40,973 nucleotides of DNA, taken from UHGV virus genome UHGV-0256613. One strand, given 5' to 3'. The DNA comes from a virus. Positions 5,167-40,973 of this stretch are shown here, piece by piece. Position numbers and translations under genes: made by a program. Under the pieces are notes generated by a model. That model did not search any database, was not told the origin of the DNA, and worked only from the letters and a program-made list of their open reading frames with translations. Position 1 is the stretch's first letter, and the number at the start of each line of letters is the position of its first letter.

Positions 5167-5167
5167 C

Positions 5168-5977: not shown

Positions 5978-5996
5978 ACTTCGTTTCTCCTCTTGA

Positions 5997-10290: not shown

Positions 10291-10321
10291 CGTTCTGTGG
10301 TTAAAAATTGAAGGTGTTCTG

Positions 10322-10522
10322 TTAATCTTTCGGATAGATATCCGGTCTTAAGTCAGATTTCGTAATTGCACCTGACGTGCATTGCTCAAGTTTTTTAGCC
10401 AGCACAAAACTGGCTTTTTTATAACCATTGAAAACCAGCCGTAAGTAGCCTGGTGTTGAGCCAACTTTTCCGGCCAACTCGCCCTGCTGTTCTTTGGTTA
10501 AAGAGTCCCAATACGCTTTCAT
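10322..10522 (-). CDS. cro: Cro-like HTH regulator
   Basis: 66 aa MKAYWDSLTKEQQGELAGKVGSTPGYLRLVFNGYKKASFVL...; GGAGGT SD; divergent from the cI gene. ORF track extends upstream to 10825. Confidence 0.7.
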   Translation of the reverse strand: MKAYWDSLTKEQQGELAGKVGSTPGYLRLVFNGYKKASFVLAKKLEQCTSGAITKSDLRPDIYPKD

Positions 10523-10612
10523 ACAATATGTACCTCCGATGTACATATTACATGATTGAGATGAACCTTCAAGATACTTGTACCCTATCGGTACAAAGGT
10601 TTTAATTTCGTT
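10523..10612. promoter_or_regulatory. cI/cro divergent operator-promoter region
   Basis: Two palindromes with 5-nt spacers: ATGTA-catat-TACAT (10539-10553) and TTGTACC-ctatc-GGTACAA (10578-10596) between divergent cro and cI starts. Confidence 0.5.
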
Positions 10613-11287: not shown

Positions 11288-11300
11288 TCAATATTTATAA

Positions 11301-11321
11301 CCTGCTTCGGCAGGTTTTTTT
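11301..11321 (+). terminator. rho-independent terminator after cI
   Basis: CCTGC-ttcg-GCAGG hairpin followed by TTTTTTT. Confidence 0.7.
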
Positions 11322-11407
11322 ATACTTGACAATGTACCCTTGGGATACATAATGTATCTAAAAGAAACACAACACAGGCAAGATTAAACAAAATTTGGTT
11401 GTAACAC

Positions 11408-11757
11408 GGCGTATGGCACATGCGTCGTTAGCGGTCTGGGGACGTTAAAGGGGACAATCCACTCCTTGCTCGGGCAAACAAACCAGGTAGCCGGAATGTG
11501 CAAGTCAATGATGATGCTGATAAGACGCCTAACCAGCGTGGCGATCCGGTTTGACGCCTGGGAAGAGACCAGGGTGCAACGATGAGGGTATTTATGGAGC
11601 CGCGACAAAGTGTGGTGCCGTAACTGGCTAAGTGCTCTCAGCGTTGTGGTAATCCGCGAAATGGCGCGGCGGTAAGTATGGCGGGGTTACTCTTTCCCCG
11701 TTGAGGACACCGGATTGTCAGGTTGACCATACGCCTGAGTGACAACCCCACCACAAC
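11408..11757 (+). ncRNA. candidate structured RNA, left copy (conserved ~240-nt module plus a 115-nt multi-stem 3' domain)
   Basis: 11408-11650 is homologous to the reverse complement of 18574-18829; no plus-strand ORF; UCGG tetraloop hairpin CUUGC-UCGG-GCAAG; stem CCUGG/CCAGG covaries with CCUCG/CGAGG in the other copy; 3' domain closed by GTTGTGG(11643-11649)/CCACAAC(11751-11757) with nested hairpins. Confidence 0.4.
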
Positions 11758-11953
11758 AGCCACTGCTTTGGCGGTACCAGTTTGTACACTTGCTTCCGGC
11801 TGGTACCGCTCTTTTTACAAAACAGAGAAGAGCATCACCGGACGACGGGCTCATAACCCAATCCATCCGGGCGGCTGCCACCGCAGGTGTTCTTCTCTGT
11901 TTTGTGGAGAAACTAATCGGCCTTGCAGGGTCGATATGATGAGGAGCAACAAA

Positions 11954-12316
11954 ATGGCTAGCGAACGCAGTACTGATGTGCAGGCATTTATCGGGGAGCT
12001 GGACGGCGGCGTATTTGAAACAAAAATCGGCGCAGTTCTCAGTGAAGTCGCTTCCGGTGTGATGAACACGAAAACCAAAGGTAAGGTCTCACTCAACCTG
12101 GAAATCGAACCATTTGATGAGAACCGTGTGAAAATCAAACACAAACTCTCATATGTTCGCCCGACTAACCGCGGGAAAATTTCCGAAGAAGACACCACCG
12201 AAACGCCGATGTATGTCAATCGCGGTGGTCGCCTGACTATTCTGCAGGAAGACCAGGGACAATTACTGACTCTTGCCGGTGAACCTGACGGAAAACTCCG
12301 CGCAGCAGGTCGTTAA
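11954..12316 (+). CDS. YfdP-like hypothetical protein
   Basis: 121 aa from ATG with GAGGAG SD; MASERSTDVQAFIGELDGGVFETKIG...; first gene of a YfdP/Q/R/S-like block. ORF track extends upstream to 11723. Confidence 0.6.
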   Translation: MASERSTDVQAFIGELDGGVFETKIGAVLSEVASGVMNTKTKGKVSLNLEIEPFDENRVKIKHKLSYVRPTNRGKISEEDTTETPMYVNRGGRLTILQEDQGQLLTLAGEPDGKLRAAGR

Positions 12317-12381
12317 TATCATACTTAATAAACTGATTATTTATCTCATCACTGAATATCTTTATATAGTGAGGACTGATT

Positions 12382-13206
12382 ATGTCTCATAACTTAGACG
12401 CAACCGCAATTAATCAAATCCATGCCCTTATTTCTGCTCAGGGTGTTAATGAAATCATCAGTAAGATTGGTGCCGATGCTGTGGCATTGCCTGAGAATTT
12501 CCGCATTCATGATCTGGAAAAATTAAATTTAAATCGCTTCCGTTTCCGTGGTGCGCTTTCCACTGCCAGCATCGATGACTTTACCCGTTATTCTAAAGAT
12601 CTTGCAGATGAAGGCACCCGCTGCTTTATCGATGCCGATAATATGCGTGCCGTCAGTGTGCTTAACCTGGGTACTATTGATGAACCAGGTCACGCAGATA
12701 ACACCGCCACTCTCAAACTGAAAAAGACAGCACCGTTCTCTGCTCTGTTGTCTGTTAACGGCGAGCGTAACTCCCAGAAGTCACTAGCAGAATGGATTGA
12801 AGACTGGGCCGACTATCTTGTGGGCTTTGATGCTAATGGTGACACCATTCAGGCAACCAAAGCGGCTGCGGCGATCCGTAAAATCACAATTGAAGCGAAC
12901 CAGACCGCTGATTTTGAAGATAATGACTTCAGCGGCAAACGCTCCCTGATGGAGTCTGTCGAAGCGAAGACCAAAGACATTATGCCAGTGGCATTTGAAT
13001 TTAAATGCGTTCCGTTTGAAAGCTTGAAAGAACGTCCGTTTAAATTACGTCTCAGCATTATCACTGGCGATCGTCCTGTACTGGTTCTGCGCATTATTCA
13101 GCTGGAAGCGGTGCAGGAAGAAATGGCTAACGAATTTCGTGATCTGCTTGTTGAGAAATTCAAAGACAGCAAAGTAGAAACCTTTATTGGTACTTTCACC
13201 GCCTGA
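12382..13206 (+). CDS. YfdQ-like protein (DUF2303)
   Basis: 274 aa, same length and gene-order context as CPS-53 YfdQ; family recalled, not searched. Confidence 0.7.
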
Positions 13207-13220
13207 TTTCATTACTGCAA

Positions 13221-13240
13221 ATGCCCCTGCGGGGGCATTT
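13221..13240 (+). terminator. hairpin (possible attenuator/terminator) after the YfdQ-like gene
   Basis: ATGCCCC-tgc-GGGGGCAT followed by TT; weak U-tract. Confidence 0.35.
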
Positions 13241-13334
13241 ATGGAAACGTAATTAACTCAATAATCGCCGGATGGTAAGGGCTTCTTTTTACCAAAATTC
13301 AGTGCGGTGCAGCGCACATAACGTGGAGAACAAA

Positions 13335-13871
13335 ATGTCATTTATTAAAACTTTTTCCGGGAAGCATTTTTATTATGACAAGATAAATAAAGACGACATC
13401 GTTATTAACGATATCGCGGTTTCCCTTTCAAATATCTGTCGCTTTGCAGGGCATCTTTCACACTTCTACAGCGTCGCCCAACATGCGGTGCTTTGCAGCC
13501 AGCTGGTACCGCAGGAATTTGCTTTTGAAGCGTTAATGCATGATGCAACAGAAGCATATTGCCAGGACATCCCCGCACCACTGAAACGACTTCTTCCTGA
13601 CTATAAACGGATGGAAGAAAAAATAGACGCCGTAATCCGTGAGAAATACGGGTTACCCCCAGTTATGAGTACGCCCGTGAAATATGCCGATCTCATCATG
13701 CTGGCAACCGAACGCCGCGATCTCGGGCTTGATGATGGCTCTTTCTGGCCTGTACTGGAAGGCATCCCGGCAACAGAGATGTTCAACGTGATTCCACTGG
13801 CACCGGGTCATGCCTACGGGATGTTTATGGAACGTTTTAACGATTTATCGGAGTTACGCAAATGCGCATGA
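13335..13871 (+). CDS. HD-domain phosphohydrolase (YfdR-like 5'-deoxynucleotidase)
   Basis: 178 aa from ATG with GGAGAA SD; HD motif context (ALMHDATEAYCQDIPAPLK). ORF track extends upstream to 13272. Confidence 0.75.
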   Translation: MSFIKTFSGKHFYYDKINKDDIVINDIAVSLSNICRFAGHLSHFYSVAQHAVLCSQLVPQEFAFEALMHDATEAYCQDIPAPLKRLLPDYKRMEEKIDAVIREKYGLPPVMSTPVKYADLIMLATERRDLGLDDGSFWPVLEGIPATEMFNVIPLAPGHAYGMFMERFNDLSELRKCA

Positions 13872-14224
13872 ATATTTTCGAAATGGAAGGGTTTCTTCGC
13901 GGGAAATGTGTACCGCGAGATCTGAAAGTGAACGAAACAAATGCTGAGTACCTGGTACGTAAATTCGACGCGCTTGAAGCTAAATGTGCGGCACTGGAAA
14001 ACAAAATAATACCAGTGTCAGCTGAACTGCCACCAGCAAATGAAAGTGTTCTGTTATTTGATGCTAATGGAGAAGGCTGGCTGATTGGCTGGCGTTCTCT
14101 CTGGTACACCTGGGGACAAAAAGAAACCGGAGAATGGCAGTGGACATTTCAGGTCGGGGACCTTGAAAACGTCAATATCACTCACTGGGCAGTAATGCCA
14201 AAAGCACCGGAGGCTGGAGCATAA
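13862..14224 (+). CDS. DUF551-like C-terminal domain protein (YfdS-like)
   Basis: 120 aa; C-terminal W-rich motif ending ITHWAVMPKAPE. Confidence 0.6.
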   Translation: MRMNIFEMEGFLRGKCVPRDLKVNETNAEYLVRKFDALEAKCAALENKIIPVSAELPPANESVLLFDANGEGWLIGWRSLWYTWGQKETGEWQWTFQVGDLENVNITHWAVMPKAPEAGA

Positions 14225-15003
14225 TGACCACATTTACCAATAAAGAACTGATTAAAGAAATCAAAGAACGAATCAGCAGCCTAGAGGTTCGAGACGATAT
14301 TGAGCGCCGTGCTTATGAAATTGCTCTGGCATCGCTAGAAGAGGAGCCGGTGGCATGGCTGCATTCAGAAAATGGCTTAGGTATTCCGGCAATAACGAGG
14401 AGTAAAAACATTGCTGACAGTTGGTTATCAAAGGGCTGGTATGTTCAGCCGCTATATATAGCCAAGCCAGTGCCGGTAGTGCCAGATGCTCGTCCGTCTT
14501 TAAATAATGGCATAGTCGGTTTTGATGAAGGCTGGAACGCCTGCCGCGCCGCCATGCTTCATGGTGCCAAACCTGTAAACCAAACTTACAAGTCACCACA
14601 CACGCTGTTTGAACAAGTTGCTGACCTCTACGAAATGCAATTTGATGACGGTCGCACTTGTGCCTTTCACACTGATGCGCAAAAGGCTGCGCAATGGCTT
14701 CAGGTGTGCGACGGAAACAGGGTTCAGGAATACGTTAAGCTGGAACGGCTGCAGAACGCGCTGTCTGGCAACTCTCCGGTAAGTCCGGGTGGTTGGATAA
14801 GCTGTAGTGAGCGAATGCCGAACGATAAACAGTATGTTTGGTGTTGGGGTAAGTCTTACGGCTGGACTGAGTGCGATACCTTCGAAGGGTATTACGATTG
14901 GTCGAGAAACAAATGGTGGGCAGTTACTGACGATGGGGAAGAACCGGCATCGAAAGTAACCCACTGGATGCCGCTACCAGAACCGCCGCAGGAGGTGAAG
15001 TGA
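14224..15003 (+). CDS. hypothetical protein with C-terminal DUF551-like domain
   Basis: 259 aa; C-terminus ...WCWGKSYGWTECDTFEGYYDW...VTHWMPLPEPP. Confidence 0.65.
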   Translation: MTTFTNKELIKEIKERISSLEVRDDIERRAYEIALASLEEEPVAWLHSENGLGIPAITRSKNIADSWLSKGWYVQPLYIAKPVPVVPDARPSLNNGIVGFDEGWNACRAAMLHGAKPVNQTYKSPHTLFEQVADLYEMQFDDGRTCAFHTDAQKAAQWLQVCDGNRVQEYVKLERLQNALSGNSPVSPGGWISCSERMPNDKQYVWCWGKSYGWTECDTFEGYYDWSRNKWWAVTDDGEEPASKVTHWMPLPEPPQEVK

Positions 15004-18496: not shown

Positions 18497-18573
18497 TGGC
18501 GTGGCATGCAGGATTCGAACCTGCGACCAACCGCTTAGAAGGCGGTTGCTCTGTCCAACTGAGCTAATGCCAC
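18497..18573 (-). tRNA. tRNA-Arg (anticodon UCU), phage-encoded
   Basis: Minus-strand GTGGCATTAGCTCAGTTGGACAGAGCAACCGCCTTCTAAGCGGTTGGTCGCAGGTTCGAATCCTGCATGCCACGCCA folds as a cloverleaf: 7-bp acceptor, D-arm GCTC/GAGC, anticodon loop CUUCUAA, T-loop TTCGAAT, encoded CCA; acceptor stem differs from recalled host argU. Confidence 0.9.
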
Positions 18574-30612: not shown

Positions 30613-33600
30613 TGCCAGTTTATGCACAAGCTGAAGATCTTAATAACGGACTGATCCCGTCAGGTAATGTTTTGCCGGAACAAACTGGGTTTGATGTTGC
30701 CCTTCCGGAAGGGGCTAATCCTGAGCCATTGCCACCTGAGCCTTCCGTATGGGGGGCTGCAATGCGACAGAACAATATTCTGTCTGGTTTTTTCCGCCCA
30801 GCCAGACAGTTTGAACCGGTCGAGGGTTATAACCCATATGCTGATAAAAATGAGTTGCACGGTTATGAATACTGGGGGGCGAAATTTGCAGATTCCCGAT
30901 CGCCAGAGGAAACGGCGTGGATTAAGCAGCAGATAGATGATGAAAATGAAGACAGACGTTTATTGTCTGATGCTGGCGTAGTTGGAACCCTTGCCAGTAT
31001 TGCTGCGGGAATGGATCCGGTTACTGTTGCGTCAATGTTTATTCCCGGTGCTCAAGGAGGGGCACTGGCGCGTATTGGCTCACAGATTGCGATTGGTGCT
31101 GCCGGTACAGCATTAAGCGAGGTTGTACTGAATAATCAGCAAATAACACGCTCATGGGGTGAAAGTGCCGCTCACGTTGCAGCGGGTGCGATGATGAGCG
31201 GCGTGTTTGCCAGTGCTGGTGTTGCGCTTTCGCCATCCGTCCGGGCTGCAGCCACACGTGAGGTTGCTGATGCTCTTGATAATATGAGCATTACATCAGT
31301 GACTGACAGGGCTGCCGCTTCGCTTTCCGATGGTGGTAGTGTTGGTGCTATGAAAATTGATACAGCGACTCTGGATGATTTAACCCCTGTTTCCGGTGGG
31401 TGGGTTGGAAAGGCTGCATGGAAAGCAGGGAGCTATCTTACTCCTTTGACAAGGTTAATGGAGTCTCCGTCCAAGACGGTGCGAAAAACAACGCTGGAGT
31501 TAGCCGAAAATAATTTCACCCTTAAAGGAAATGAAAGGGGGATTGAAACACCGGTAGCTGTAGAAACCCGTACACGTGGATGGCAGCGTGAAGAAGCTGC
31601 TGTTGTTGTCGGAAATAAACAGGCATACGCAAAGTATAAAGCTGATGGTGGTGACATGAGTTTTGATTCATTTCGTCAGCAGGTTGGGAATGCTATGCGA
31701 AGCGGTGATGTGCATGCTAATCCTGTTGTTCAGGAAACGGCGCAGGCGATGCGAACTGTATTAAATCGGGTGAAAGTTGAAATGCAAAAGCTTGGTTTAT
31801 TGCCGCCAGATGAAGAACTGAAAGCATTAGGCCAGGCAAGCTATTTCCCACGCATATATAAAGTTGGAAAAATAATCAGTGAACGCGATAAATTTCGACG
31901 TATTTTGGTTGACTGGTGGTCGAGAGGAAATAAAACACTGGATCCTGAGGATGCTGAAATTGCAGCGGATATCGTAATTAATAAAATTACTGGTGCTAAG
32001 GTTCCACAGGATTTTGTCAGCGTATTTTCTGTAAAAGCCGCAGGTAGTACGAAAGAAAGAACATTAAATGTTCCTGATAGTCTTATCAGGGATTATCTTG
32101 AAAGTGATGTGAATTACGTGCTGCAACGTCATATCCGTGAAGCGGCAGCAGAAATTGAGTTGACGAGAACATTTGGCAAACGAACTATGACTGAGCGTCT
32201 GCAATTAATTGAGGACGAATATGACAGTCTGTTACGGGAAGTGCCTGAAAAAATAAAGGCGAAATATGACGAAAGTGTGGCAAATCTGAAAGCACGTTAT
32301 GAGAGCAATGGTGAAGTTGTTCCTCAGGGTAAACTCGATTCATTAATGCGAAAGTACGAAAAGGAATTACGGAAAGAACAGTCCAGACTTTCAAAATCAA
32401 GAGCAAATGATCTCAGAGACATAACAGCATTACGCGATCGTCTTGTTGGTACATATGGGATGCCTGATGATCCGTCTTCGTTTTTTGTTCGTGCTGGCGC
32501 TTTTCTGCGGGATGTGAACTTCACGACCAAACTCGGTGGAATGACAGTATCAGCTATTCCAGATCTGGCCAGAGGGGTTATGGTTAATGGTTTCCGTAAC
32601 ACCATGAAAGGCTATGCTTCTCAGATATCCCAATCACCGGCATTTAAGGCCAGCAAAGAAGATATGTTGAAGATGGGGATTGGATTGGAAGCTGTACTAC
32701 ATTCACGTTCTCGTGCAATTGGTGATCTTGTTGACAGTTCTTCCAGGACAACAGCAGTCGAAGCAGGAATGGAGCGAATTACTGATGCCTTCGGCAAGCT
32801 GACACTCATGGATCGATTTAATGACATAAACAAATCCATGAACGGAATGCTCACGTCAGACGGTATTTTGTCCGGTGCGTTTTCTGCACGTCGCATGGCA
32901 AAACTCGGTATCAACGACAATATGGCTGCGCGTATTCGCAGTGAGTTCGAGAAACATGGTGAGGTAATTGATGGATGGCACATTGGTAACTTTGATAAAT
33001 GGGACGATCAGTACGTTGCCGGAGTATTCCAGTCAGCGGTTCTGAAAGACGTTAATAACACTATCATCACCCCCGGTATTGGTGACACACCTTTATGGGC
33101 GAGTACTCCAATGGGGCGAACGATATTTCAGTTTAAATCATTCACAACGGCTTCATACAACCGTGCGCTACTTGGTGGGTTACAGGAAGGAACTGCGCAA
33201 TTTTATTATGGCACTGCATTTCAGATTGCTCTTGGCTCACTGGTCTATGCGCTAAAAGAAGCATCGAAAGGGAAAAATGTTGACTGGTCACCAGAGAAGC
33301 TGGTGCTTGAGGGTATAGATAGATCCGGTATTCTTGGGCCATTGATGGAATATAACAACATGGCTGAAAAGGCTACTGGTGGTGCTGTTGGGCTGGGGGC
33401 TTTATTTGGCACTGGCACACAGTCTAGGTATGCCAGTCGTGGATTCGTAGGATCTCTATTCGGACCGTCATTTGGTCTTGCGGATAGCATCATTGATGTG
33501 ACCGCAGGAGTGTTGAATGGTGATGCCGGTGATCGTATTGCGCATAATGTCCGAACCCTGATACCAGGCAATAACCTGTTCTGGATTGCGCCACTAATAA

Positions 33601-33626
33601 ACCAGGTGGATCCGGTGATGCGGTGA
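30612..33626 (+). CDS. internal virion/ejection protein (large core protein)
   Basis: 1004 aa; ATGA-coupled; last gene of the core block. Confidence 0.7.
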   Translation: MPVYAQAEDLNNGLIPSGNVLPEQTGFDVALPEGANPEPLPPEPSVWGAAMRQNNILSGFFRPARQFEPVEGYNPYADKNELHGYEYWGAKFADSRSPEETAWIKQQIDDENEDRRLLSDAGVVGTLASIAAGMDPVTVASMFIPGAQGGALARIGSQIAIGAAGTALSEVVLNNQQITRSWGESAAHVAAGAMMSGVFASAGVALSPSVRAAATREVADALDNMSITSVTDRAAASLSDGGSVGAMKIDTATLDDLTPVSGGWVGKAAWKAGSYLTPLTRLMESPSKTVRKTTLELAENNFTLKGNERGIETPVAVETRTRGWQREEAAVVVGNKQAYAKYKADGGDMSFDSFRQQVGNAMRSGDVHANPVVQETAQAMRTVLNRVKVEMQKLGLLPPDEELKALGQASYFPRIYKVGKIISERDKFRRILVDWWSRGNKTLDPEDAEIAADIVINKITGAKVPQDFVSVFSVKAAGSTKERTLNVPDSLIRDYLESDVNYVLQRHIREAAAEIELTRTFGKRTMTERLQLIEDEYDSLLREVPEKIKAKYDESVANLKARYESNGEVVPQGKLDSLMRKYEKELRKEQSRLSKSRANDLRDITALRDRLVGTYGMPDDPSSFFVRAGAFLRDVNFTTKLGGMTVSAIPDLARGVMVNGFRNTMKGYASQISQSPAFKASKEDMLKMGIGLEAVLHSRSRAIGDLVDSSSRTTAVEAGMERITDAFGKLTLMDRFNDINKSMNGMLTSDGILSGAFSARRMAKLGINDNMAARIRSEFEKHGEVIDGWHIGNFDKWDDQYVAGVFQSAVLKDVNNTIITPGIGDTPLWASTPMGRTIFQFKSFTTASYNRALLGGLQEGTAQFYYGTAFQIALGSLVYALKEASKGKNVDWSPEKLVLEGIDRSGILGPLMEYNNMAEKATGGAVGLGALFGTGTQSRYASRGFVGSLFGPSFGLADSIIDVTAGVLNGDAGDRIAHNVRTLIPGNNLFWIAPLINQVDPVMR

Positions 33627-33637
33627 GTTAAACGCCT

Positions 33638-34249
33638 TTAGCATGATTCAGGGGAAACCCCAATATTAAATATGAGTGACTCCCCTGAATCAGCATAATA
33701 ATGTAATATTATTGACTTACGTTGTTTTCTTGCTTCGTAGAATAAACGCTCCTGCGGCGATAATTTGTGAAAACTGCCGGATGCACAATATATGTTTTTT
33801 AACTTTTCGCTGGTTGCTTTTATTGTATCTTCTGAGATGTATTTTAGGTATTTATCCGTATAGATGTTGCTACTATAAGAAATTAATGTTTTGCTGTTGT
33901 TGTGATGTGTTGTATTTTTATCGTTGAAGTCTGTATTTTTATTTACTGTCATTAGGTTTTTAATGATTACATGTAATACAATAGTCTCCCCATCATCAAT
34001 TCCATATTTGATGTCATAGTCAGTATATTTATTTGTTATACCGCTTCCTGATAGCGGCACTATGTACTCTGAGAAAAATGAGTTTGCCGCGTGACCATCA
34101 AGAGCAATAGCATTTTTTTTGTGGTAAAAATAAAACAATATTGAGAGAGTCAAAATAATAGCGACGCCTAATGCAACCTTTAATATAGATATGGTTTTCA
34201 AAATATCGCTCCTTGTTGTAACATACATCAGTAATGTGGCGTTTTTCAA
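33638..34249 (-). CDS. membrane-anchored protein (moron), unknown function; probable TTG start at 34201
   Basis: AT-rich; AAGGAG SD 6 nt before TTG at 34201 giving MKTISILKVALGVAIILTLSILFYFYHKK...; Asn/Tyr/Lys-rich body; 3' end overlaps a 12-bp-arm inverted repeat. Confidence 0.6.
   Translation of the reverse strand: MKNATLLMYVTTRSDILKTISILKVALGVAIILTLSILFYFYHKKNAIALDGHAANSFFSEYIVPLSGSGITNKYTDYDIKYGIDDGETIVLHVIIKNLMTVNKNTDFNDKNTTHHNNSKTLISYSSNIYTDKYLKYISEDTIKATSEKLKNIYCASGSFHKLSPQERLFYEARKQRKSIILHYYADSGESLIFNIGVSPESC
33644..33692. repeat. 12-bp perfect inverted repeat (TGATTCAGGGGA ... TCCCCTGAATCA) with 25-nt spacer
   Basis: Lies between convergent genes (core protein stop 33626; moron stop 33638). 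Confidence 0.6.
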
Positions 34250-34291
34250 TTGTATTAAAGACGTGTAATATGTACACGCCTTTTGTTCTTC

Positions 34292-34723
34292 CTATTCAGG
34301 TATTTCAATTCCAAAACCATCTGCATCCCATGAGTTTTCACAGATGATGTAACCTAGTTCATTGAGCTTATTAAATGTTTTTTCAAAGATGATCTGGTAA
34401 TCATTATCTGCAAGTGATTCCAGTTCAAGGTCATTAAGGTTTATATAAAAACTTGTATGTCCAAGTGTTATTTTCTTATTAATTTCATTAAAGGTTCTTT
34501 TGAAAATAATATTTGATATTTCATGCCGTGCATTGTTTGCAATAATTTTTGCTTCATAAGCAGAAATTACGTCATCTTCATGAATATCTTTCAGAAAGCT
34601 GGTGTCAAGACGTTGTACTATTTCAGCGTTCATTGATCGCTTATTGGCTTTTGCAGAAATTTCTATTTTTTCTTTTACTTCAACGGGAAGTCTGATCCTT
34701 AGTTGTGGATCTTCTCTGCTCAT
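34292..34723 (-). CDS. Mnt-like ribbon-helix-helix repressor with C-terminal extension
   Basis: N-terminus DPQLRIRLPVEVKEKIEISAKANKRSMNAEIVQRLDTSF matches the Arc/Mnt RHH pattern; divergent from the arc-ant operon as in P22 immI. ORF track extends to 34753 (TTG). Confidence 0.65.
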   Translation of the reverse strand: MSREDPQLRIRLPVEVKEKIEISAKANKRSMNAEIVQRLDTSFLKDIHEDDVISAYEAKIIANNARHEISNIIFKRTFNEINKKITLGHTSFYINLNDLELESLADNDYQIIFEKTFNKLNELGYIICENSWDADGFGIEIPE

Positions 34724-34814
34724 GTTCTTCACCAAATATTGAGTTACTTGCAATGATTGAAGTATGCCTCACCGTGTGCTTGACATCAATGACGCACGGT
34801 GTGACAATTGTTTT

Positions 34815-34829
34815 GCCCCACCGTGGGGC
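34815..34829. promoter_or_regulatory. Mnt-operator-like palindrome overlapping the arc/ant promoter
   Basis: GCCCCAC-c-GTGGGGC, 15-29 nt upstream of the arc ATG; core CCACCGTGG resembles P22 Omnt core CCACGGTGG (recalled). Confidence 0.5.
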
Positions 34830-34843
34830 TAAGGAGATATGAA

Positions 34844-35011
34844 ATGCAAAAAGCAAAAGAGATGTGTCAACGACGAGTTCGTTTTCCGGACGATGTGAAG
34901 TTAGCTATTGAAAGAAATGGCGAAAAAGAATGCCGAAAGTTCAATACAGAGATTATCTATCAGCTGAGGAAAGTGTATGGACTCACTGGTGAGAAGAATA
35001 GCGTGGCATAA
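34844..35011 (+). CDS. arc: Arc-like ribbon-helix-helix repressor
   Basis: 55 aa from ATG with AAGGAG SD; RVRFPDDVKLAIERNGEKECRKFNTEIIYQL parallels Arc. ORF track starts at TTG 34808. Confidence 0.7.
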   Translation: MQKAKEMCQRRVRFPDDVKLAIERNGEKECRKFNTEIIYQLRKVYGLTGEKNSVA

Positions 35012-35083
35012 AACAGCGAAGCCCAACGGTGGCCAGACCGTCAGGGCTTCAGTATCGTAAAACTACGTATAGGAATTAACGAC

Positions 35084-36022
35084 ATGACGAGTATAGCAAC
35101 AGCGGTATCTACTATCAACGTGCCATTCCACGGCGCAGAGCTTTATGTTGTCAATCACAACGGTGAACCGTATACCCCAATGAAACCTATCGTTGAGGGA
35201 ATGGGGCTAGACTGGAAATCTCAACATAAGAAGATTTCTCAACGCTTCTCGAAGGGTATGGTGGAAATCACCATACCTTCTGCCGGTGGGGTGCAAGCCA
35301 TGATTTGTATGGCTTTACGAAAATTGGCAGCTTGGTTGAACAGCATCAGTCCAAACAAAGTACGCCCTGAAATCCGCGACAAGGTAATCCAGTATCAGGA
35401 AGAGTGTGACGATGTGCTCTACGATTACTGGACTAAAGGCCATGTAGTTAACCCACGCAAAGCTAAAAAGGCGTTGCCGGGTAAAATCACCACTGAACAG
35501 CAGGAAGCCATTAAACAACTCGTCATGAGTCGCGGTCAGTCTCTGCCAAAAGAAAAACAGGCTAAGGCGATGATCACCATGTGGTCGTCACTGAAATCTC
35601 ATTTTGGCTGTTCGTACAAAGAAATTGATGAAGATCAATTCGCCGAAGCGTTGTCTCTTGTTGCTCGGGTTCCGCTTGAAGGGGAGTATCTCCCTGCTGG
35701 ATCTGCATCAGAGAATGATGAAGTGGCAGTCAAGATGTTAGATGCGCTTCGTGAGGCAATTAAAACACAGACAAAATGTTATGGTTATCCGCTGAAGCCC
35801 GGCTACCGCAGTTTGATTCACTCGCCGTCTGGTGTTCTCGGCCTGACGGAGAACTCACTGCTGATGAATCTGCTGAACCAGTTACAGGAAGACGGGCACG
35901 ACGTATCGGGTGCGGCGGCGGAACTGACCACCATGTTCTGCTACATCGTCGGTGTGAGTAAATGCCTGCGTGATATCCAGACCCACGCGGAGTACATCAA
36001 CGACAAGGCAGGGTTCTTCTGA
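35084..36022 (+). CDS. ant: antirepressor Ant (AntA-type N-terminal domain, shared C-terminal domain)
   Basis: 312 aa; N-terminus ...MKPIVEGMGLDWKSQHKKIS...; C-terminal ~85 aa nearly identical to the C-terminus of the 37274-37966 protein. Confidence 0.8.
   Translation: MTSIATAVSTINVPFHGAELYVVNHNGEPYTPMKPIVEGMGLDWKSQHKKISQRFSKGMVEITIPSAGGVQAMICMALRKLAAWLNSISPNKVRPEIRDKVIQYQEECDDVLYDYWTKGHVVNPRKAKKALPGKITTEQQEAIKQLVMSRGQSLPKEKQAKAMITMWSSLKSHFGCSYKEIDEDQFAEALSLVARVPLEGEYLPAGSASENDEVAVKMLDALREAIKTQTKCYGYPLKPGYRSLIHSPSGVLGLTENSLLMNLLNQLQEDGHDVSGAAAELTTMFCYIVGVSKCLRDIQTHAEYINDKAGFF
35780..36022. repeat. left arm of ~245-bp inverted repeat (antirepressor C-terminal coding region)
   Basis: Reverse complement is near-identical by eye to 37274-37520 (a handful of mismatches). 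Confidence 0.8.
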
Positions 36023-36073
36023 CAGAACGGCGGCACAGGGATGTGCAAAACGGAACTATCGTGACATGTCACA

Positions 36074-36097
36074 GGCCGCTTTCGCGGCCTTGTTTTT
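36074..36097 (+). terminator. rho-independent terminator after ant (preceded by GTGACATGTCAC palindrome at 36061-36072)
   Basis: GGCCGC-tttc-GCGGCC followed by TTGTTTTT; identical hairpin recurs at 39327-39350. Confidence 0.6.
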
Positions 36098-36257
36098 AAC
36101 GAATGCCACCGCCACCCGGGCGGGAATCCGCAGAACGCCCACCGCAGCGGGAGCCGTCAGCAGCAGTGTCGCTGTCGTGCTGACAACGACCGGCAAAGGC
36201 CTGAGTTGAAGCTACCAGAGACAACAAAACGAACAGTGCAGCAAATGCTTTTTTCAT
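36096..36257 (-). CDS. possible small secreted peptide
   Basis: MKKAFAALFVLLSLVASTQAFAGRCQHDSDTAADGSRC...; clear signal-peptide-like N-terminus but weak SD and GC-rich; uncertain. Confidence 0.3.
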   Translation of the reverse strand: MKKAFAALFVLLSLVASTQAFAGRCQHDSDTAADGSRCGGRSADSRPGGGGIR

Positions 36258-36328
36258 TGTGAAATTTCCATCTATAAGCCACCTCAATGTGGCGTCAATG
36301 AGTGTAGCACTGACTTTTGTTTCGTCCA

Positions 36329-36350
36329 CAAAAAAGCCCGCAGCGCGGGC
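36329..36350 (-). terminator. rho-independent terminator (minus strand)
   Basis: On minus strand GCCCGC-gcu-GCGGGC followed by TTTTTT, directly after the stop of the 36351-36899 gene. Confidence 0.55.
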
Positions 36351-36899
36351 TTACTTTTCTTCAGGTTTGTTGTCTTCAGATTTCTTCTTGATGCTTGGTT
36401 TTTGTCTAAGAACGAAAATACCAGCCACTGCAACAACTGTACCGATCACTGTGCCAGCTAGAACTTCATGACCTGTTAAACCTAATAATGTTGCACAAGC
36501 TACTGTAAAAATAGTTGCACTCAGGCCAAACCACTGCCCACGTTTATCTCTATTAATAGCCCCGTCAAGTGCCTTTTCCTCCATTTTCTGGCGGTGAGCA
36601 AACTCCTTCTCCGTCAGCTGGAAGATGCGTTCGGGGGCATCAGGTAAAATATCCTGATACCCGCGAAGCAGATAGGGGGGAGGAAGCGGACCCTGAAACG
36701 CATGGTGAGCGACAACTATCTCCTGAATTTCAGGGCGATCAAGAACTCTTGTGAAGGCATCTGGGTGTTGAATGATCTCGTTACTTAGCCCTTCCTCAAC
36801 TTCCTCGAACTCAGTTTCTTCGTTATCACTTGGTTGCCCAATAGATTTTTGCATATTTGTCGAAGGACATTCCTTTAGCTTCTGGTTTTCCTCTTGCAT
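36351..36899 (-). CDS. membrane protein (acidic N-terminus, two C-terminal TM helices)
   Basis: 182 aa; C-terminal WFGLSATIFTVACATLLGLTGHEVLAGTVIGTVVAVAGIFVL; start uncertain (internal Met at residue 16). Confidence 0.6.
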   Translation of the reverse strand: MQEENQKLKECPSTNMQKSIGQPSDNEETEFEEVEEGLSNEIIQHPDAFTRVLDRPEIQEIVVAHHAFQGPLPPPYLLRGYQDILPDAPERIFQLTEKEFAHRQKMEEKALDGAINRDKRGQWFGLSATIFTVACATLLGLTGHEVLAGTVIGTVVAVAGIFVLRQKPSIKKKSEDNKPEEK

Positions 36900-37152
36900 T
36901 TGAGTTTTTCCCTGTCACTATTGCCCATTTTCCGCCAGCAGGCGCTGCAATTTTTTTTCCGTTCTTTACTATATATTCAGCATAAACACGATTTTCTGAC
37001 CGTCTGAGATCGTCTCCGACCATATTCATGTCTCTTGATATAACTTTGACGACAGAGTCTCGGTTTAAAGCCTTGGCATAGTTGGAGCCAGGAACGATAC
37101 CCAAAGGGGTGCCAGACTCTATAGCCAGCTCCTTGACATATCTTCTGCTCAT
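36826..37152 (-). CDS. hypothetical protein
   Basis: 108 aa from ATG at 37152 with GAGGT SD; overlaps the next gene's 5' end. ORF track extends to 37167. Confidence 0.45.
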   Translation of the reverse strand: MSRRYVKELAIESGTPLGIVPGSNYAKALNRDSVVKVISRDMNMVGDDLRRSENRVYAEYIVKNGKKIAAPAGGKWAIVTGKNSNARGKPEAKGMSFDKYAKIYWATK

Positions 37153-37273
37153 ATGAACCTCAACCAATCGACTTTACCAATCGGGTAATTTTAAACATGA
37201 GTATAATGCTTTTAACTGCAACGAGTGTAAACAATTATTGATAATTGTAGGCACATCCCTGTGCCGCCGCCCG

Positions 37274-37520
37274 TCAGAAGAACCCTGCTTTGTCGTTGAT
37301 GTACTCCGCGTGCGTCTGGATATCACGCAGGCATTTGCTCACACCGACGATGTAGCAGAACATGGTGGTCAACTCCGCCGCCGCGCCCGATACGTCGTGC
37401 CCGTCTTCCTGTAACTGGTTTAGCAGATTCATCAGCAGTGAGTTCTCCGTCAGGCCGAGAACACCAGACGGCGAATGAATCAGGCTGCGGTAGCCGGGCT
37501 TCAGTGGGGCGCTGTAGGTT
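37274..37520. repeat. right arm of ~245-bp inverted repeat (antirepressor C-terminal coding region)
   Basis: Near-identical to reverse complement of 35780-36022. Confidence 0.8.
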
Positions 37521-37966
37521 TTGTTCTCTACCTTCATTGCCTGCATCACTGCTGATGCTGTGGCGTTGGCTACCTGGTCGGCAACCATCTTTATGCGTTC
37601 TTCCTGCGGGAGCGAGTTTTTAATGTAACTTCCGGTGCGGCGGATCTGAGGAAGAACCTCACCTGTAACCCATTCAAGAAATCTGAATGCTCTCGTTCCC
37701 TCAGTCATTGCCTCTTTGCAACGCAGAATAAGGATGTAGAGACCTGATTCTGAAACGATGGATAGTTCTTGTATTCCACCAGGGGTCTGTATTGAATACA
37801 GCCCCTTTTTGTTCCAGCCTTTTTTATCAAGTTTTCTCGCTTGTGTAACATCAATATTCAAAGCATTGCACACATCTTTGGTGACAAACCAAGGTTCTCC
37901 GTCAATCATGAACATACGGATCTGGCAGGATGACTCAAAGGAAAAGATGGAAGGTTTGGTATTCAT
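37274..37966 (-). CDS. antirepressor paralog (Bro-N-type N-terminal domain, shared Ant C-terminal domain)
   Basis: N-terminus MNTKPSIFSFESSCQIRMFMIDGEPWFVTKDVCNALNI... (Bro-N-like); C-terminal ~85 aa shared with Ant at 35084-36022. ORF track extends to 38011. Confidence 0.75.
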   Translation of the reverse strand: MNTKPSIFSFESSCQIRMFMIDGEPWFVTKDVCNALNIDVTQARKLDKKGWNKKGLYSIQTPGGIQELSIVSESGLYILILRCKEAMTEGTRAFRFLEWVTGEVLPQIRRTGSYIKNSLPQEERIKMVADQVANATASAVMQAMKVENKTYSAPLKPGYRSLIHSPSGVLGLTENSLLMNLLNQLQEDGHDVSGAAAELTTMFCYIVGVSKCLRDIQTHAEYINDKAGFF

Positions 37967-38015
37967 AGCGATCACCTTTGTAGTTAGGTTAATCACCACC
38001 GCTGAGACCAATCAG

Positions 38016-38098
38016 ATGGTGGTGAACTGTGCAGAGTTGGTCTTACCGGCTACAAAGGAACCCGGCGCACCTTTCGGTGCCCCCACACAGCCCACCAT
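38016..38098. repeat. diverged duplicate of 9184-9266 (leader/N-terminal module with GNRA hairpin)
   Basis: ggtggtgaactg..cccggcgcacctttcggtgcccccac..cagcccaccata shared by both loci; here encodes only a 28-codon relic (MVGCVGAPKGAPGSFVAGKTNSAQFTTI*) upstream of the Bro-N antirepressor. Confidence 0.7.
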
Positions 38099-38233
38099 AG
38101 AATAGGTGCGCTTTACACATAAAAAAACCGCTTATGCGGCATATGTGCCTCTGTAGTAATCCGGGAGACCAATCCCGGCACTGGATTTTGCCAGTGCCCG
38201 ATTACTATGGCACAAGAGGAGTGCAATGTAAAT

Positions 38234-38248
38234 TTACCGAAAAGGTAA
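38234..38248. promoter_or_regulatory. TTACC-N5-GGTAA palindrome (copy 3 of 4)
   Basis: TTACCgaaaaGGTAA in the divergent region between the Bro-N antirepressor and the two-gene module. Confidence 0.4.
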
Positions 38249-38326
38249 TAATAAATGCATAACTCACGTTATTTCAACCCTATATGGTTTGATTTATCCC
38301 ATTTCAGAAAATACCTGCCTATTTTT

Positions 38327-38356
38327 TTGCCAGTATGCGTATACTTTCGATAGAAT
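38327..38356 (+). promoter_or_regulatory. candidate sigma70 promoter for the two-gene module
   Basis: TTGCCA (38327-38332), 18-nt spacer, TAGAAT (38351-38356); AT-rich upstream region. Confidence 0.35.
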
Positions 38357-38373
38357 GTTTACCCTAGAGGTAG

Positions 38374-38829
38374 TTGGGGGTGCCCGTGAACACGAAGAGA
38401 GCTACAGTAATGCAGCATTTGAGGAAATCAGAAAAAAATAAAGACCATGAAATATTGAGTAAGGCCATTGTTCGGGCTTCCAATAATACTGTTATACCTC
38501 ATGCTGAAGAGTCTGGACAGAAATTTCTTATTCGGTATTTCACTGAAAATAGTGCAGTTGAGGAGATTTTAAAACATCAGGGAGGGGAATTTAAATGTGG
38601 AAAACTGGCAGATTATGTTCGTCGTGAAACGTCTGAACAAGAAGTATATTATGCTGATATTAATCATAAGTCAGGTGTGAAAATTGTAATAGGCTATTAC
38701 ACAACTCCCAAAAATGTTATGCATGAGGTCCCAAAGATGTCCGTCGAGAAATCTCATGCAATCTCGCGCAGGATGTTTGCACGCACTGCCGAAGATATGG
38801 CTCAGGAGCTCTACGACGATGCTGAATAA
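38374..38829 (+). CDS. hypothetical protein, upstream partner of the YafO-like gene (start uncertain: TTG 38374 or ATG 38410)
   Basis: 139-151 aa; AT-rich; stop overlaps the downstream start by 11 nt (ATGCTGAATAA). Confidence 0.6.
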   Translation: MGVPVNTKRATVMQHLRKSEKNKDHEILSKAIVRASNNTVIPHAEESGQKFLIRYFTENSAVEEILKHQGGEFKCGKLADYVRRETSEQEVYYADINHKSGVKIVIGYYTTPKNVMHEVPKMSVEKSHAISRRMFARTAEDMAQELYDDAE

Positions 38830-39325
38830 ATTCCAGGGGTTGGTTCACCCTGGAATTTTTGGGAAGGACCCTGAGCTAATACCTATCAAAAACGCGTTCA
38901 TAGATCACTGGCGCTACGGTCATCATAAGGATTTCGGAAAGGACACTCTGTTTCGGGATCCACCGAAAGAAATGCTGGAATATCACATACGCCACGTTCA
39001 CGTAAACATCGGAAACTATACTGACAAGTTTGGTGAGAGCGGTACGGAACAATGCTGGAAAAACTGGGCGTCTGGGAAGAAAGACAAGACCACTAACAAG
39101 CATAAAAAGATCCCAACCAGTGACGTGTATGTGATTTATCTGGTCACATCTGAACGCCATGCCTTCCTTCTGGATTATTGGGATGAACCAGCACATAAGA
39201 CAGTAGAAATTGACGAGCAGAAGCAAAAATTAGTTGTCGAGTGTGACAGAATTTTGCGGCTGAAAAAGTTAGAATCCATGCCGCGCGATGCTAGTTTGTG
39301 GGACCCAGAATTTTACGACTGTTAA
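38819..39325 (+). CDS. YafO-family-like toxin-domain protein (putative)
   Basis: 168 aa; motifs GIFGKDPEL / DFGKDTLF, HIRHVHVNIGN and DVYVIYLVTSERHAFLLDYWDEPAHK parallel recalled YafO motifs (IFGRDALYDD, HIHLAN, HLVYCQGAFDEQAWLLIAILKPEPHK); AGGAG SD. Confidence 0.55.
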   Translation: MLNKFQGLVHPGIFGKDPELIPIKNAFIDHWRYGHHKDFGKDTLFRDPPKEMLEYHIRHVHVNIGNYTDKFGESGTEQCWKNWASGKKDKTTNKHKKIPTSDVYVIYLVTSERHAFLLDYWDEPAHKTVEIDEQKQKLVVECDRILRLKKLESMPRDASLWDPEFYDC

Positions 39326-39326
39326 T

Positions 39327-39350
39327 GGCCGCTTTCGCGGCCTTTTCTTT
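39327..39350 (+). terminator. rho-independent terminator after the two-gene module
   Basis: GGCCGC-tttc-GCGGCC followed by TTTTCTTT; same hairpin as 36074-36097. Confidence 0.6.
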
Positions 39351-39606
39351 ATGTGGTTTGTTTTCGTAATTGTTCGGCACAATAGTCGAGATGTGTTTGC
39401 AGATCCTGCATAGACATCTGTGAGCTGGTGACGTAGTTAATCAGTGCAGTCAGTTCGGCAAGTGGGCCATCGACATTAAATCCATCCTTATCGAGATCCC
39501 GGAGTAATTTCATCAAGTGCGATCCCTCCACCAGTGACCTGACGCCTCCCGGCGTGTGAATCCTTTCGGTAAATCCGTCTTCCAGTGGATAGTGATACTG
39601 CTGCAT
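39349..39606 (-). CDS. small protein homologous to the antirepressor C-terminal domain only
   Basis: 85 aa from ATG with GGAGAAG SD; PGGVRSLVEGSHLMKLLRDLDKDGFNVDGPLAELTALINYVTSSQMSMQDLQTHLDYCAEQL parallels the Ant C-terminus. ORF track extends to 39729. Confidence 0.5.
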   Translation of the reverse strand: MQQYHYPLEDGFTERIHTPGGVRSLVEGSHLMKLLRDLDKDGFNVDGPLAELTALINYVTSSQMSMQDLQTHLDYCAEQLRKQTT

Positions 39607-39682
39607 CTTATCTTCTCCATGCAATAACTGTATGTTTATACAGTAACAAATAATTTGTTTGCTATCCAGCACGTTTTGCAAA

Positions 39683-39697
39683 TTACCCGAAAGGTAA
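39683..39697. promoter_or_regulatory. TTACC-N5-GGTAA palindrome (copy 4 of 4; 7-bp arms ATTACC..GGTAAT)
   Basis: aATTACCcgaaaGGTAATa between the divergent small Ant-C gene and the tailspike gene. Confidence 0.4.
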
Positions 39698-39801
39698 TAT
39701 CTATTGGTATTTATAGTCTTTTTATCCATATATGGTTTTTCAGGTAATAGAATAACCAGATATGCGGCGCAACGGGTGCTGCGACTATCTGGAGATTTAA
39801 C

Positions 39802-40973
39802 ATGACGGTCTCAACCGAAGTTGACCACAACGAATACACCGGTAACGGCGTTACGACATCGTTTCCGTATACTTTTCGAATTTTCAGAAAATCAGACCTG
39901 GTTGTTCAGGTGTCTGATCTGAACGGAAACGTAACAGAATTGGTCCTGGATACCGGTTATACGGTAACTGGGGCGGGCACTTATAGTGGCGGTTCTGTGG
40001 TTCTTCCGTCTCCGCTTGCTACTGGATGGCGAATTACGATAGATCGTGTGCTTGATGTAGTGCAGGAGACAGACCTTCGCAATCAGGGAAAATTTTTCCC
40101 CGAAGTGCATGAAGATGCCTTTGACTACCTGACGATGCTGATCCAGCAATGTTTTGGGTGGTTCAGACGTGCATTGATGAAGCCCTCTCTGCTTGCAAAA
40201 TATTACGATGCAAAGCAAAACAGAATTTCTAACCTTGCAGATCCATCACTTGAGCAGGATGCTGTAAATAATCGCTCAATGCGTAATTATGTCGATGCTG
40301 CAATCGCCGGGGTTGTTGGTGGTTTTGGTTGGTTTATTCAGTATGGTTCTGGGGCTGTGTACCGAACGTTCCAGGATAAGATGAGAGACACCATTAGTGT
40401 TCGTGATTTTGGTGCAAAAGGAGACGGCATAACAGATGATACTGTAGCAATTCAAAATGCTATTAATGCAGTACCAGAAGGGGCTATACTTGGATTTTAT
40501 GGTGGTGAATTTGTTTTTGATAAGGTTGAATTGTTTAAGCCAATAACATTAGTTGGTGATGCAACGTTAATTCACAACGGATTTAGAATAAAATCTAGCA
40601 GAATCCGATCACTTTTATCTGGCGTTCAGAAATGCAAGGATTACTCCGAGTCTTCAAGAGCATTTTATTGCTATGCAAATGAAGACCAAAGAGATTATGA
40701 CGATATTCAGATTTTATTTAATAGATTTGAAGGTTTCTTTTACTCTACGGCATTTGTTGCAAAAAACTATTATTTGGAGAATGACCCTAATTCAAGAATT
40801 GTCAAAAACACAAAAGTAATAGGGTGTACATCAGTTGCTCCTGATTCTGTAAATGCCGGTCATTTTCAACATATAGGCGTTACAAATGCTGAAACATCAC
40901 ATAACTCAACTTATGGCGGACAAAATGCAACATCATACAACTTCATTAACCAGAATGGATTTGTAAGGATTAT
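39802..40973 (+). CDS. tailspike/tail fibre (T7-type N-terminal adaptor; pectate-lyase-like start of receptor-binding domain), 3'-truncated at window end
   Basis: Open frame from ATG 39802 (GGAGAT SD) to the window end: MTVSTEVDHNEYTGNGVTTSFPYTFRIF... then ...ISVRDFGAKGDGITDDTVAIQNAINAVPEG; not in ORF track because no stop is reached. Confidence 0.8.
   Translation, partial: MTVSTEVDHNEYTGNGVTTSFPYTFRIFRKSDLVVQVSDLNGNVTELVLDTGYTVTGAGTYSGGSVVLPSPLATGWRITIDRVLDVVQETDLRNQGKFFPEVHEDAFDYLTMLIQQCFGWFRRALMKPSLLAKYYDAKQNRISNLADPSLEQDAVNNRSMRNYVDAAIAGVVGGFGWFIQYGSGAVYRTFQDKMRDTISVRDFGAKGDGITDDTVAIQNAINAVPEGAILGFYGGEFVFDKVELFKPITLVGDATLIHNGFRIKSSRIRSLLSGVQKCKDYSESSRAFYCYANEDQRDYDDIQILFNRFEGFFYSTAFVAKNYYLENDPNSRIVKNTKVIGCTSVAPDSVNAGHFQHIGVTNAETSHNSTYGGQNATSYNFINQNGFVRI

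Follow-up and report, generated by a model that had tools for sequence, protein, structure and literature searches.

The UHGV virus genome UHGV-0256613 (40,973 nt, called the window here) carries two convergent antirepressor genes, a P22-type gene on the plus strand and a Bro-N gene on the minus strand, whose 3' ends are near-identical and form a long inverted repeat around three minus-strand genes, namely a hypothetical protein gene (hyp113), a DUF2335 membrane protein gene and the gene of a 53-aa peptide (tm53). This raises the question whether the repeat is kept as a device for inverting the enclosed cassette, as the original prediction of a possible phase-variable switch had it, or whether it has another origin, for which a hotspot for modular exchange of antirepressor N-terminal domains had been named as the alternative. 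We hold it probable, at roughly 75%, that the repeat is a by-product of a constrained effector domain shared by the antirepressors, that this domain is a homology patch for modular exchange, and that inversion is an occasional side effect.

A repeat search of the window returned a long inverted repeat at 35754-36023 and 37273-37542 (270 nt, 90% identity); all further inverted repeats within 34000-39500 were 23 nt or shorter, and tandem repeats were not found in 34000-40000. Alignment narrowed the repeat to a core with sharp edges, in which arms of 258 and 259 nt are 93.8% identical, with 13 mismatches, 3 gap columns and a longest perfect run of 53 nt (Table 1). The inverted repeat is real and lies far above chance expectation. 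The near-identical ~245-bp repeats that had been noted at the two antirepressor C-termini are confirmed with this refined core, the gene coordinates given with them were essentially right, and the repeats do bracket three minus-strand genes and two terminators, which had been placed at 36074-36097 and 36329-36350, close to the hairpins found here. The outer edge of the core coincides with the first codon of the shared domain (PLKPGY...), and its inner edge lies 24 nt beyond both stop codons. Over their final 77 codons the two genes encode identical protein, and all 11 nucleotide differences there are synonymous (0 non-synonymous). Because the arms code for the same residues, a crossover between them would leave both proteins unchanged, as had been stated for the two reading frames; both arms are 3' coding ends including the stop codons, and inversion would alter no product.

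The arm-encoded domain is, judged by its alignment, a full-length homologue of SPC32H-type Ant. Its 77 residues match the 86-aa SPC32H Ant (PDB 5D50_E) without gaps over residues 4-79 (76 residues, E 6e-15). A third copy is encoded by a stand-alone antirepressor gene, the product of which is 43% identical to the arm-encoded domain in a gapless BLASTP alignment, and PHROG 450 matches all three Ant-domain proteins. A homologue search with the 78-aa domain returned short proteins only (54-109 aa), and stand-alone versions of ~95 aa exist. According to PMC9638917, SPC32H Ant is active in tetrameric form; it binds the repressor of the prophage and disrupts the tetramer in which that repressor binds DNA. 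The Bro-N antirepressor shares 80% identity with ORF4 of the Uetakevirus vB_EcoP_ZX5, the C-terminal domains being the same in sequence, and overexpression of ZX5 ORF4 cut the prophage titre ~1000-fold, from 10^9 to 10^6 (PMC9782041).

The P22-type Ant of the window is a chimera, with a linker and an SPC32H-type domain in the place of the P22-type C-terminal domain, since canonical relatives share its ~207 N-terminal residues and then continue into P22_AR_C (residues 207-279). No Pfam match to P22_AR_C was obtained in the window protein. The same N-part (residues 1-222) is joined to this different C-terminus in more than 60 IMG/VR loci.

The shared domain was then followed through related loci, collected from IMG/VR with the Bro-N gene (80 loci) and the P22-type gene (80 loci) as queries and supplemented with phage records and closed Escherichia coli (E. 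coli) genomes; 106 arms were extracted from 83 loci. These arms comprise 88 nucleotide haplotypes and only 14 protein variants, with mean proportions of synonymous (pS) and non-synonymous (pN) differences of 0.15 and 0.0045, respectively (pN/pS 0.03). The shared domain is under strong purifying selection. It is also heavily recombined: of 435 pairs of biallelic sites, 199 have all four gametes, and by the Hudson-Kaplan bound no fewer than 13 recombination events took place in 231 nt (Rm at least 13). Arms of the same locus (96.1% identity) are no more alike than arms of different loci (95.3%), so that concerted evolution is absent.

Across the domain, 7 upstream sequence types (Bro-N variants and P22_AR_N) reassort with 15 downstream module types, and ORF6N stands in place of Bro-N in some closed genomes. 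A terminator and the convergent 53-aa gene follow the P22-type gene in 11 of 12 cases, only this gene being so constant. Phage EC.W1-9 carries the cassette and the Bro-N gene at 99.9% identity without the left arm, as do many closed genomes. The arms thus bear the signature of a recombination joint between modules. The exchange hotspot proposed as the alternative is thus well supported, and it extends to the exchange of downstream cargo.

Some relatives (L023, L033 and L166, the last being UTME-12) hold an inverted, truncated remnant of the N-terminus of the P22-type ant, equivalent to window 35109-35505, ~400 nt upstream of the Bro-N gene on the injection side. The Bro-N gene of these relatives fills the slot that ant holds in the window, and the remnant looks like the footprint of older rearrangements.

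In 89 of the 106 arms, the stop codon is followed at no more than 40 nt by a motif of ~20 nt, GGGCGGCGGCACAGGGATGTGC(C), and in MS 196-1 this motif is where two stacked cassettes are joined. It is also located at ~9235-9260 of locus L083. The motif and the 3' end of the tm53 gene have GGGCGGCGG in common, and some arms have the final ~18 nt of the tm53 gene immediately after the stop codon, which looks like a deletion between microhomologies.

From these observations a mechanism can be proposed. The domain would be the part with which each of the three proteins binds a repressor, and the need to fit that partner would account for its conservation. The locus from the injection genes to the tailspike is hypervariable and accepts morons; the domain appears to be its single conserved stretch, and because it is the only one it would serve as the patch at which host or phage homologous recombination joins modules. 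The post-stop motif appears to help this joining. Inversion of the cassette would be an occasional by-product that merely shifts cargo and terminator from one antirepressor operon to the other.

Table 1. Predicted features of the antirepressor locus, with positions in the window.
Feature	Position	Strand	Basis
Mnt-like repressor gene (Arc-type ribbon-helix-helix), P22-type immI module	34292..34753	-	Pfam Arc PF03869, E 1.2e-14
Small Arc-like repressor gene, upstream of ant	34844..35011	+	TL-2011b orthologue annotated 'Arc-like repressor'
sar antisense RNA overlapping the ant start region	35015..35082	-	Rfam RF00262, 45.2 bits (gathering score 43)
Chimeric antirepressor gene, P22_AR_N-Ant	35084..36022	+	P22_AR_N at aa 12-121 (Pfam E 2.5e-45), P22-Ant middle region, linker, SPC32H-Ant-type domain at aa 236-312 (PDB 5D50_E, E 6.9e-14 over aa 231-307)
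Left arm	35789..36046	+	77 codons, stop and 24 nt; repeat search and alignment
Post-stop boundary motif, GGCGGCACAGGGATGTGC / GGGCGGCGGCACAGGGATGTGC(C)	GGCGGCACAGGGATGTGC: 36029..36046, mirror 37251..37268; GGGCGGCGGCACAGGGATGTGC(C): 36028..36046, mirror 37251..37269	+; mirror -	Hairpin GCACA-GGGA-TGTGC in GGCGGCACAGGGATGTGC, GGCACA-GGGA-TGTGCC in GGGCGGCGGCACAGGGATGTGC(C)
Intrinsic-terminator-like hairpin ending the ant transcript	36073..36090	+	Promoter/terminator scan
tm53, 53-aa peptide gene, signal-peptide-like N-terminus	36096..36257	-	PHROG 14503 'membrane associated protein', E 2e-40
Bidirectional terminator-like hairpin closing the Bro-N-Ant/hyp113/DUF2335 unit	36334..36352	both	Promoter/terminator scan
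DUF2335 membrane protein gene	36351..36899	-	Pfam DUF2335, E 1.6e-15; PHROG 3996
hyp113, hypothetical protein gene	36826..37167	-	PHROG 10654, E 1e-65, aligned from residue 6
Right arm	37249..37507	-	Repeat search and alignment
Bro-N antirepressor gene, same SPC32H-Ant-type C-terminal domain	37274..37966	-	Pfam Bro-N, E 1.9e-13; 5D50_E, E 9e-14
C4 antisense RNA directly upstream of the Bro-N-Ant gene	38015..38102	-	Rfam RF01695, 78.6 bits (gathering score 45)
isrK RNA with its own terminator	38121..38197	-	Rfam RF01394, 74.7 bits (gathering score 50)
Stand-alone 85-aa Ant gene, SPC32H Ant orthologue, third domain copy	39349..39606	-	5D50_E, E 1.3e-47 over 84 residues
Putative LexA (SOS) box, TACTGTATAAACATACAGT	39625..39646		~20 nt upstream of the stand-alone ant start codon

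If the arms served a programmed switch, both orientations of the cassette should be common among isolates or within populations. The tally of orientations is a sample rather than a census, with ~1100 E. coli genomes matching the locus; MSB1_8B, N25 and 2015C-4498 are among the E. coli carriers of this architecture. The native junction of the window type was present in three closed E. coli genomes and that of the TL-2011b type, with YafO cargo, in ten. Five more closed genomes with four further cargo sets had ant on the plus strand and after it, in minus orientation throughout, tm53, cargo, the Bro-N gene and the stand-alone ant. Hence the pair of P22-type and Bro-N genes was native in 18 and inverted in 0 of the closed E. 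coli genomes counted, over six cargo sets. Inverted junctions matching the window and TL-2011b/L098 types were found in 0 of 5426 complete E. coli genomes, the queries being the P22-type ant of the window with its arm and the reverse-complemented right end of the cassette, and the junction of contig L098 from IMG genome 2740892230, with clean coverage of at least 80% required. UTME-9 and UTME-12, which reached 80%, were rejected as inverted, both keeping the usual arrangement plus an ant remnant in inverted orientation. In IMG/VR, 17 contigs had a P22-type/Ant-domain gene; of these, 12 were native, 4 were uninformative and 1, L098, was inverted.

Two further genomes carry flipped arrangements. 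In the closed genome of MS 196-1, the injection gene, Bro-N gene and stand-alone ant are collinear with those of the window, and the cassette of the window is inverted (98.2% identity). There it shares an operon with an ORF6N-domain gene that occupies the other slot, and a second cassette is stacked alongside. A three-way comparison of single-nucleotide polymorphisms (SNPs) between the arms of MS 196-1 and those of the window, aimed at a single crossover point, showed mosaics that do not point to any single event. Between L008 and L017, a whole block of 3.26 kb is flipped, including both Bro-N genes, the isrK/C4 regions and the cargo, and the breakpoints in L008 lie upstream of both Bro-N genes, outside the arms. 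The metagenome contig L016, with three Bro-N-domain genes and cargo inverted relative to L024, L033 and L056 with breakpoints at the arm ends, was not counted as a clean arm-to-arm inversion, as it has extra rearrangements; its 'inverted' unit (A, DUF4760, tm53) is the standard operon in 32 closed genomes. Both orientations thus occur in nature, rarely, and occasional homologous inversion is real. Where the events are resolvable, whole gene-plus-cargo units moved, and the cargo did not toggle between fixed genes. The original prediction had pointed to related prophages as a test of alternative orientation: the native orientation proved nearly fixed (18/18 closed genomes), but the outcome that only one orientation is ever seen did not strictly hold (L098, MS 196-1, L008).

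Some of our observations weigh against the view of the repeat as a by-product and of the domain as its repressor-binding effector. Over 5968 nt, L098 and TL-2011b are 99.97% identical, yet L098 has the cassette inverted (99.4%), and as the product expected of ongoing inversion it may indicate a rate higher than the closed-genome tally suggests. As for the effector, the resident repressor (10613-11287) is CI-like with an S24 peptidase domain, and it resembles SPC32H Rep weakly, over the N-terminal ~75 residues only (E 0.0026), and TL-2011b gp10 with 34% identity over 71 residues; that the shared domain targets this repressor can for this reason only be inferred. The predicted targets of the Ant-domain proteins may be the resident repressor or, as for Gifsy, the repressors of other prophages in trans; PMC7380047 describes Gifsy antirepressors as acting in trans on other prophages.

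The arm of L098 is a hybrid of left-type and then right-type SNPs, with the crossover inside an identical tract of 56 nt. The contig includes 11 nt of the second arm and then stops. When the reciprocal hybrid arm was sought in IMG/VR, 23 contigs matched, none from the same genome, the SNP combination also occurring natively elsewhere. With the contig ending there and no reciprocal junction recovered, L098 possibly represents a mixed population or an error in the assembly path. A quite unlikely idea that would give this contig a meaning is that the repeat is a low-frequency, recombinase-independent operon-swap element, in which crossover between the arms moves cargo and terminator between the isrK/C4-gated and the Mnt/Arc/sar-gated operons. 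If this were true, lysogen populations would hold a standing minority with the cargo (the membrane protein, the secreted peptide and, in relatives, a YafO-like toxin) under a different induction signal, and L098 would be a captured example.

The programmed phase-variable switch of the original prediction is not supported, and we consider it highly unlikely. It would keep the arms as recombination sites, with each flip moving hyp113-DUF2335, tm53 and the terminator between the operons controlled by isrK/C4 and by Mnt/Arc/sar. The geometry does permit inversion with both proteins unchanged, L098 has exactly the arrangement that a flip would give, its arm being a hybrid and its sequence otherwise TL-2011b-like, and MS 196-1 and L008 provide flipped arrangements. 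In the Mu G and P1 C segments (Gin/Cin), Salmonella hin and the shufflons, a dedicated invertase acts on crossover sites of ~26-34 bp, and variable gene parts lie inside the segment so that inversion changes the product. The window resembles these systems in having a phage cassette between inverted repeats that overlap coding sequence, but its 258-bp arms are 3' coding ends of unchanged products and its orientation is nearly fixed. Neither an invertase nor a second recombinase was found in the ~30 non-structural open reading frames (ORFs) scanned, which include all those in 33600-39730 (ORFs of the structural region were not individually scanned), and the full annotation of TL-2011b lists an integrase and RecT/exonuclease VIII as its only recombinases. 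The window does encode RusA. The arms are 6% diverged and have not been homogenised; with this divergence and a longest identical run of 53 nt, general homologous recombination is possible but should be inefficient, given minimal homology requirements and mismatch repair. Moreover, as all coding differences are synonymous, selection on the protein alone suffices to explain the similarity, cassettes with only one arm occur in many relatives, and the promoter-like sites and terminator of the cargo itself leave no obvious on/off effect of orientation. All 18 closed genomes with six cargo sets are native, the flips in L008 and MS 196-1 concern whole gene-plus-cargo units flipped or relocated, and L098 ends at its second arm, the reciprocal junction not having been found. 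The locus therefore fails the defining tests of an invertible switch, namely an invertase, a change of product or promoter and a common polymorphism of orientation.

The locus is rich in antisense control (sar, C4, isrK), and no convincing terminator of the minus strand separates tm53, on that strand, from the left arm. This is in favour of a very improbable explanation at the RNA level, according to which antisense read-through or tm53 transcripts would pair with both antirepressor mRNAs, silencing them in a coordinated manner, and the repeat would be selected for this pairing. Terminators nevertheless flank the cassette on the strands relevant to both antirepressor operons, the conservation is of the protein type (synonymous-only change, pN/pS 0.03) and single-arm relatives are common. 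Hardly credible, and contradicted by the closed genomes, is an artefact of assembly or annotation, or a recent and trivial event in which one antirepressor gene was duplicated in inverted orientation, with no role in module exchange: some flipped examples do lie on draft or metagenome contigs (L016 and L098, the latter ending at the repeat), but the architecture is present in TL-2011b, an isolated phage, and in 18 closed genomes, the four-gamete result and the reassortment table reflect real recombination, and the homology ends sharply at the domain edge between N-parts of unrelated families (P22_AR_N and Bro-N), of which the P22-type one is ~90-94% shared with P22-like and Stx phages bearing P22_AR_C, so that the two genes are chimeras of different origin and not duplicates.

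Each of the three Ant-domain genes lies behind a different known type of control, which would be expected to work as in the model systems. In front of the P22-type gene, mnt, arc, sar and ant are all present in P22 order (window 34292-36022). Orthologues of the Mnt-like gene are labelled 'Arc family DNA-binding protein' in closed-genome relatives, the product of the Arc-like gene has no Pfam match, and a promoter-like site (TTGACA-17-GACAAT) lies at 34780-34808. The Mnt/Arc/sar circuit governs superinfection immunity in P22. The isrK/C4 pair (38015-38197) is co-oriented with the Bro-N-Ant gene on the minus strand and ends 49 nt upstream of its start codon, and a promoter-like site is found at 38277-38248, just upstream of the isrK element. 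In ZX5, a 37-aa 'ash family protein' is annotated directly upstream of the antirepressor, and the equivalent region of the window overlaps the C4 match. In Gifsy-1, the isrK promoter drives an antirepressor-like gene, and a small RNA (sRNA) gates its translation through a leader ORF (PMC4825925). The putative box TACTGTATAAACATACAGT is near the SOS consensus, with an exact CTGT-N8-ACAG match at 39628-39643, and precedes the stand-alone ant only, the arm genes having the mnt/arc/sar and isrK/C4 contexts instead.

A second pair of isrK (9294-9370, 56.7 bits) and C4 (9182-9269, 80.7 bits) is located in the early region at 9182-9370 on the minus strand, ~75% identical in DNA to the pair at the Bro-N gene; small ORFs and a DnaD-like gene for replication lie downstream of it. 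The ORF at 8894-9730 (minus strand) that overlaps this early pair is probably spurious. A 108-aa ORF at 6383-6709 (minus strand) has only the LexA DNA-binding domain (Pfam LexA_DNA_bind, E 2.9e-19) and no cleavage domain. Its product is possibly a non-cleavable LexA mimic, and if so it could act on SOS boxes such as that of the stand-alone ant.

Within the cassette, tm53 is the most conserved cargo element, with 98-100% amino acid identity in most related loci. The likely start of hyp113 is 37152, which gives 108 aa, and its annotation in EC.W1-9 has 327 nt; promoter-like sites lie upstream of it at 37188-37231 (minus strand). With its own promoter-like sites and a bidirectional terminator, the cargo appears organised as is typical of morons. 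In other cases the arms commonly enclose a toxin of the YafO family instead, as in TL-2011b and 10 closed genomes. Plus-strand ORFs of 151 and 203 aa (PHROGs 9503 and 1651), found in only some relatives, lie at 38374-39325 between the Bro-N gene and the stand-alone ant. The 203-aa product is ~45% identical to a cargo ORF of L008, L017 and L061, which is itself 33% identical to the YafO-family protein of TL-2011b. Terminator hairpins at 36067-36098, downstream of ant, and at 39320-39351, downstream of the ORF 38714-39325, both on the plus strand, are 84% direct repeats with a GGCCGCTTTCGCGGCC core.

Every component of the locus has a close known counterpart in SPC32H Ant, P22 immI, the isrK/C4 operons, the shuffling of Bro-N, P22_AR_N and ORF6N domains, and morons. 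The Ant-Rep system of SPC32H, an epsilon15-like Salmonella phage (PDB 5D50), is matched by the arm domain and by the stand-alone orthologue with its LexA box, ant of SPC32H being described as SOS-controlled by Kim and Ryu in 2013, as cited in PMC7380047. Unlike in SPC32H, two of the three copies in the window are C-terminal modules on Bro-N and P22_AR_N in non-LexA control contexts, and the repressor is CI-like and only weakly Rep-like at its N-terminus. P22 immI is matched in the order and orientation of the Mnt-like, Arc-like, sar and P22_AR_N elements, and the N-terminal two thirds of the window ant are ~90-94% identical in DNA to ant of CUS-3 and Stx phages; however, P22_AR_C is replaced, and the module lies inside a virion gene block of the epsilon15/phiV10 type. 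The isrK-orf45-anrP genes of Gifsy-1 and c4-icd-ant of P1/P7 resemble the Bro-N side, where isrK and C4 stand immediately upstream on the same strand, whereas the antirepressor of the window is a Bro-N/SPC32H-Ant fusion followed by moron cargo, with a regulation that is inferred from the RNA motifs.

In lambdoid phages, 'boundary sequences' are found at the borders of mosaic modules, and a 'boundary sequence' feature is annotated in CUS-3 under the ant match. The shuffling of Bro-N, KilA-N and ORF6N domains is said to have been described by Iyer, Koonin and Aravind in 2002. Sharp homology at a domain edge, a motif at the inner junction, reassortment of N-domains and cargo, and cargo with its own promoter-like sites and terminator liken the window to such mosaic boundaries and morons. 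It differs from them in that the patch is a whole constrained effector domain, present in up to three copies per genome and in both orientations. As the domain occurs in both orientations, inverted repeats and occasional inversions also arise. The locus is a mosaic antirepressor locus. No description of one effector domain under three input circuits turned up in literature searches.

The phage itself is a hybrid. Its virion, injection and antirepressor block (15119-36351) is 94-98% identical to the phiV10-like TL-2011b, and the early region (1-15000) gave no megablast match to TL-2011b. Genes of the early region include those for a Q antiterminator, CII/CP76, a Cro-like protein, the CI-like S24 repressor, RusA, KilA-N, Dam and an N6/N4 methylase; an integrase gene was not seen among the window ORFs scanned. 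A tRNA gene (18500-18573, minus strand; Rfam tRNA, 73.3 bits) lies between the terminase gene and a portal-sized gene, the latter assigned by position. In E. coli HL15 and SF10, which are duck isolates, the locus is found besides the chromosomes also on separate 41-kb records (NZ_CP079771.1 / NZ_CP079768.1; 41,027 nt), which may represent the phage as an episome or after excision.

The repeat as such is a commonplace result of phage mosaicism, and it is the triple arrangement, not the inverted repeat, that is of moderate interest to phage biologists. For genome scans, the locus advises caution, since inverted repeats formed by a shared coding domain in convergent genes should not be taken for an invertible switch unless an invertase or a polymorphism of orientation is present. 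It is a clean natural example of temperate phages assembling induction circuits from parts, in which one predicted repressor-targeting 'warhead' domain with a solved close homologue is combined with interchangeable N-domains and with three inputs, namely SOS/LexA, Mnt/Arc/sar and sRNA gating. The locus makes it testable whether repressor specificity resides in the C-terminal domain alone and what Bro-N and P22_AR_N contribute, and it suggests that a strongly constrained coding patch can be the recombination joint for moron exchange.

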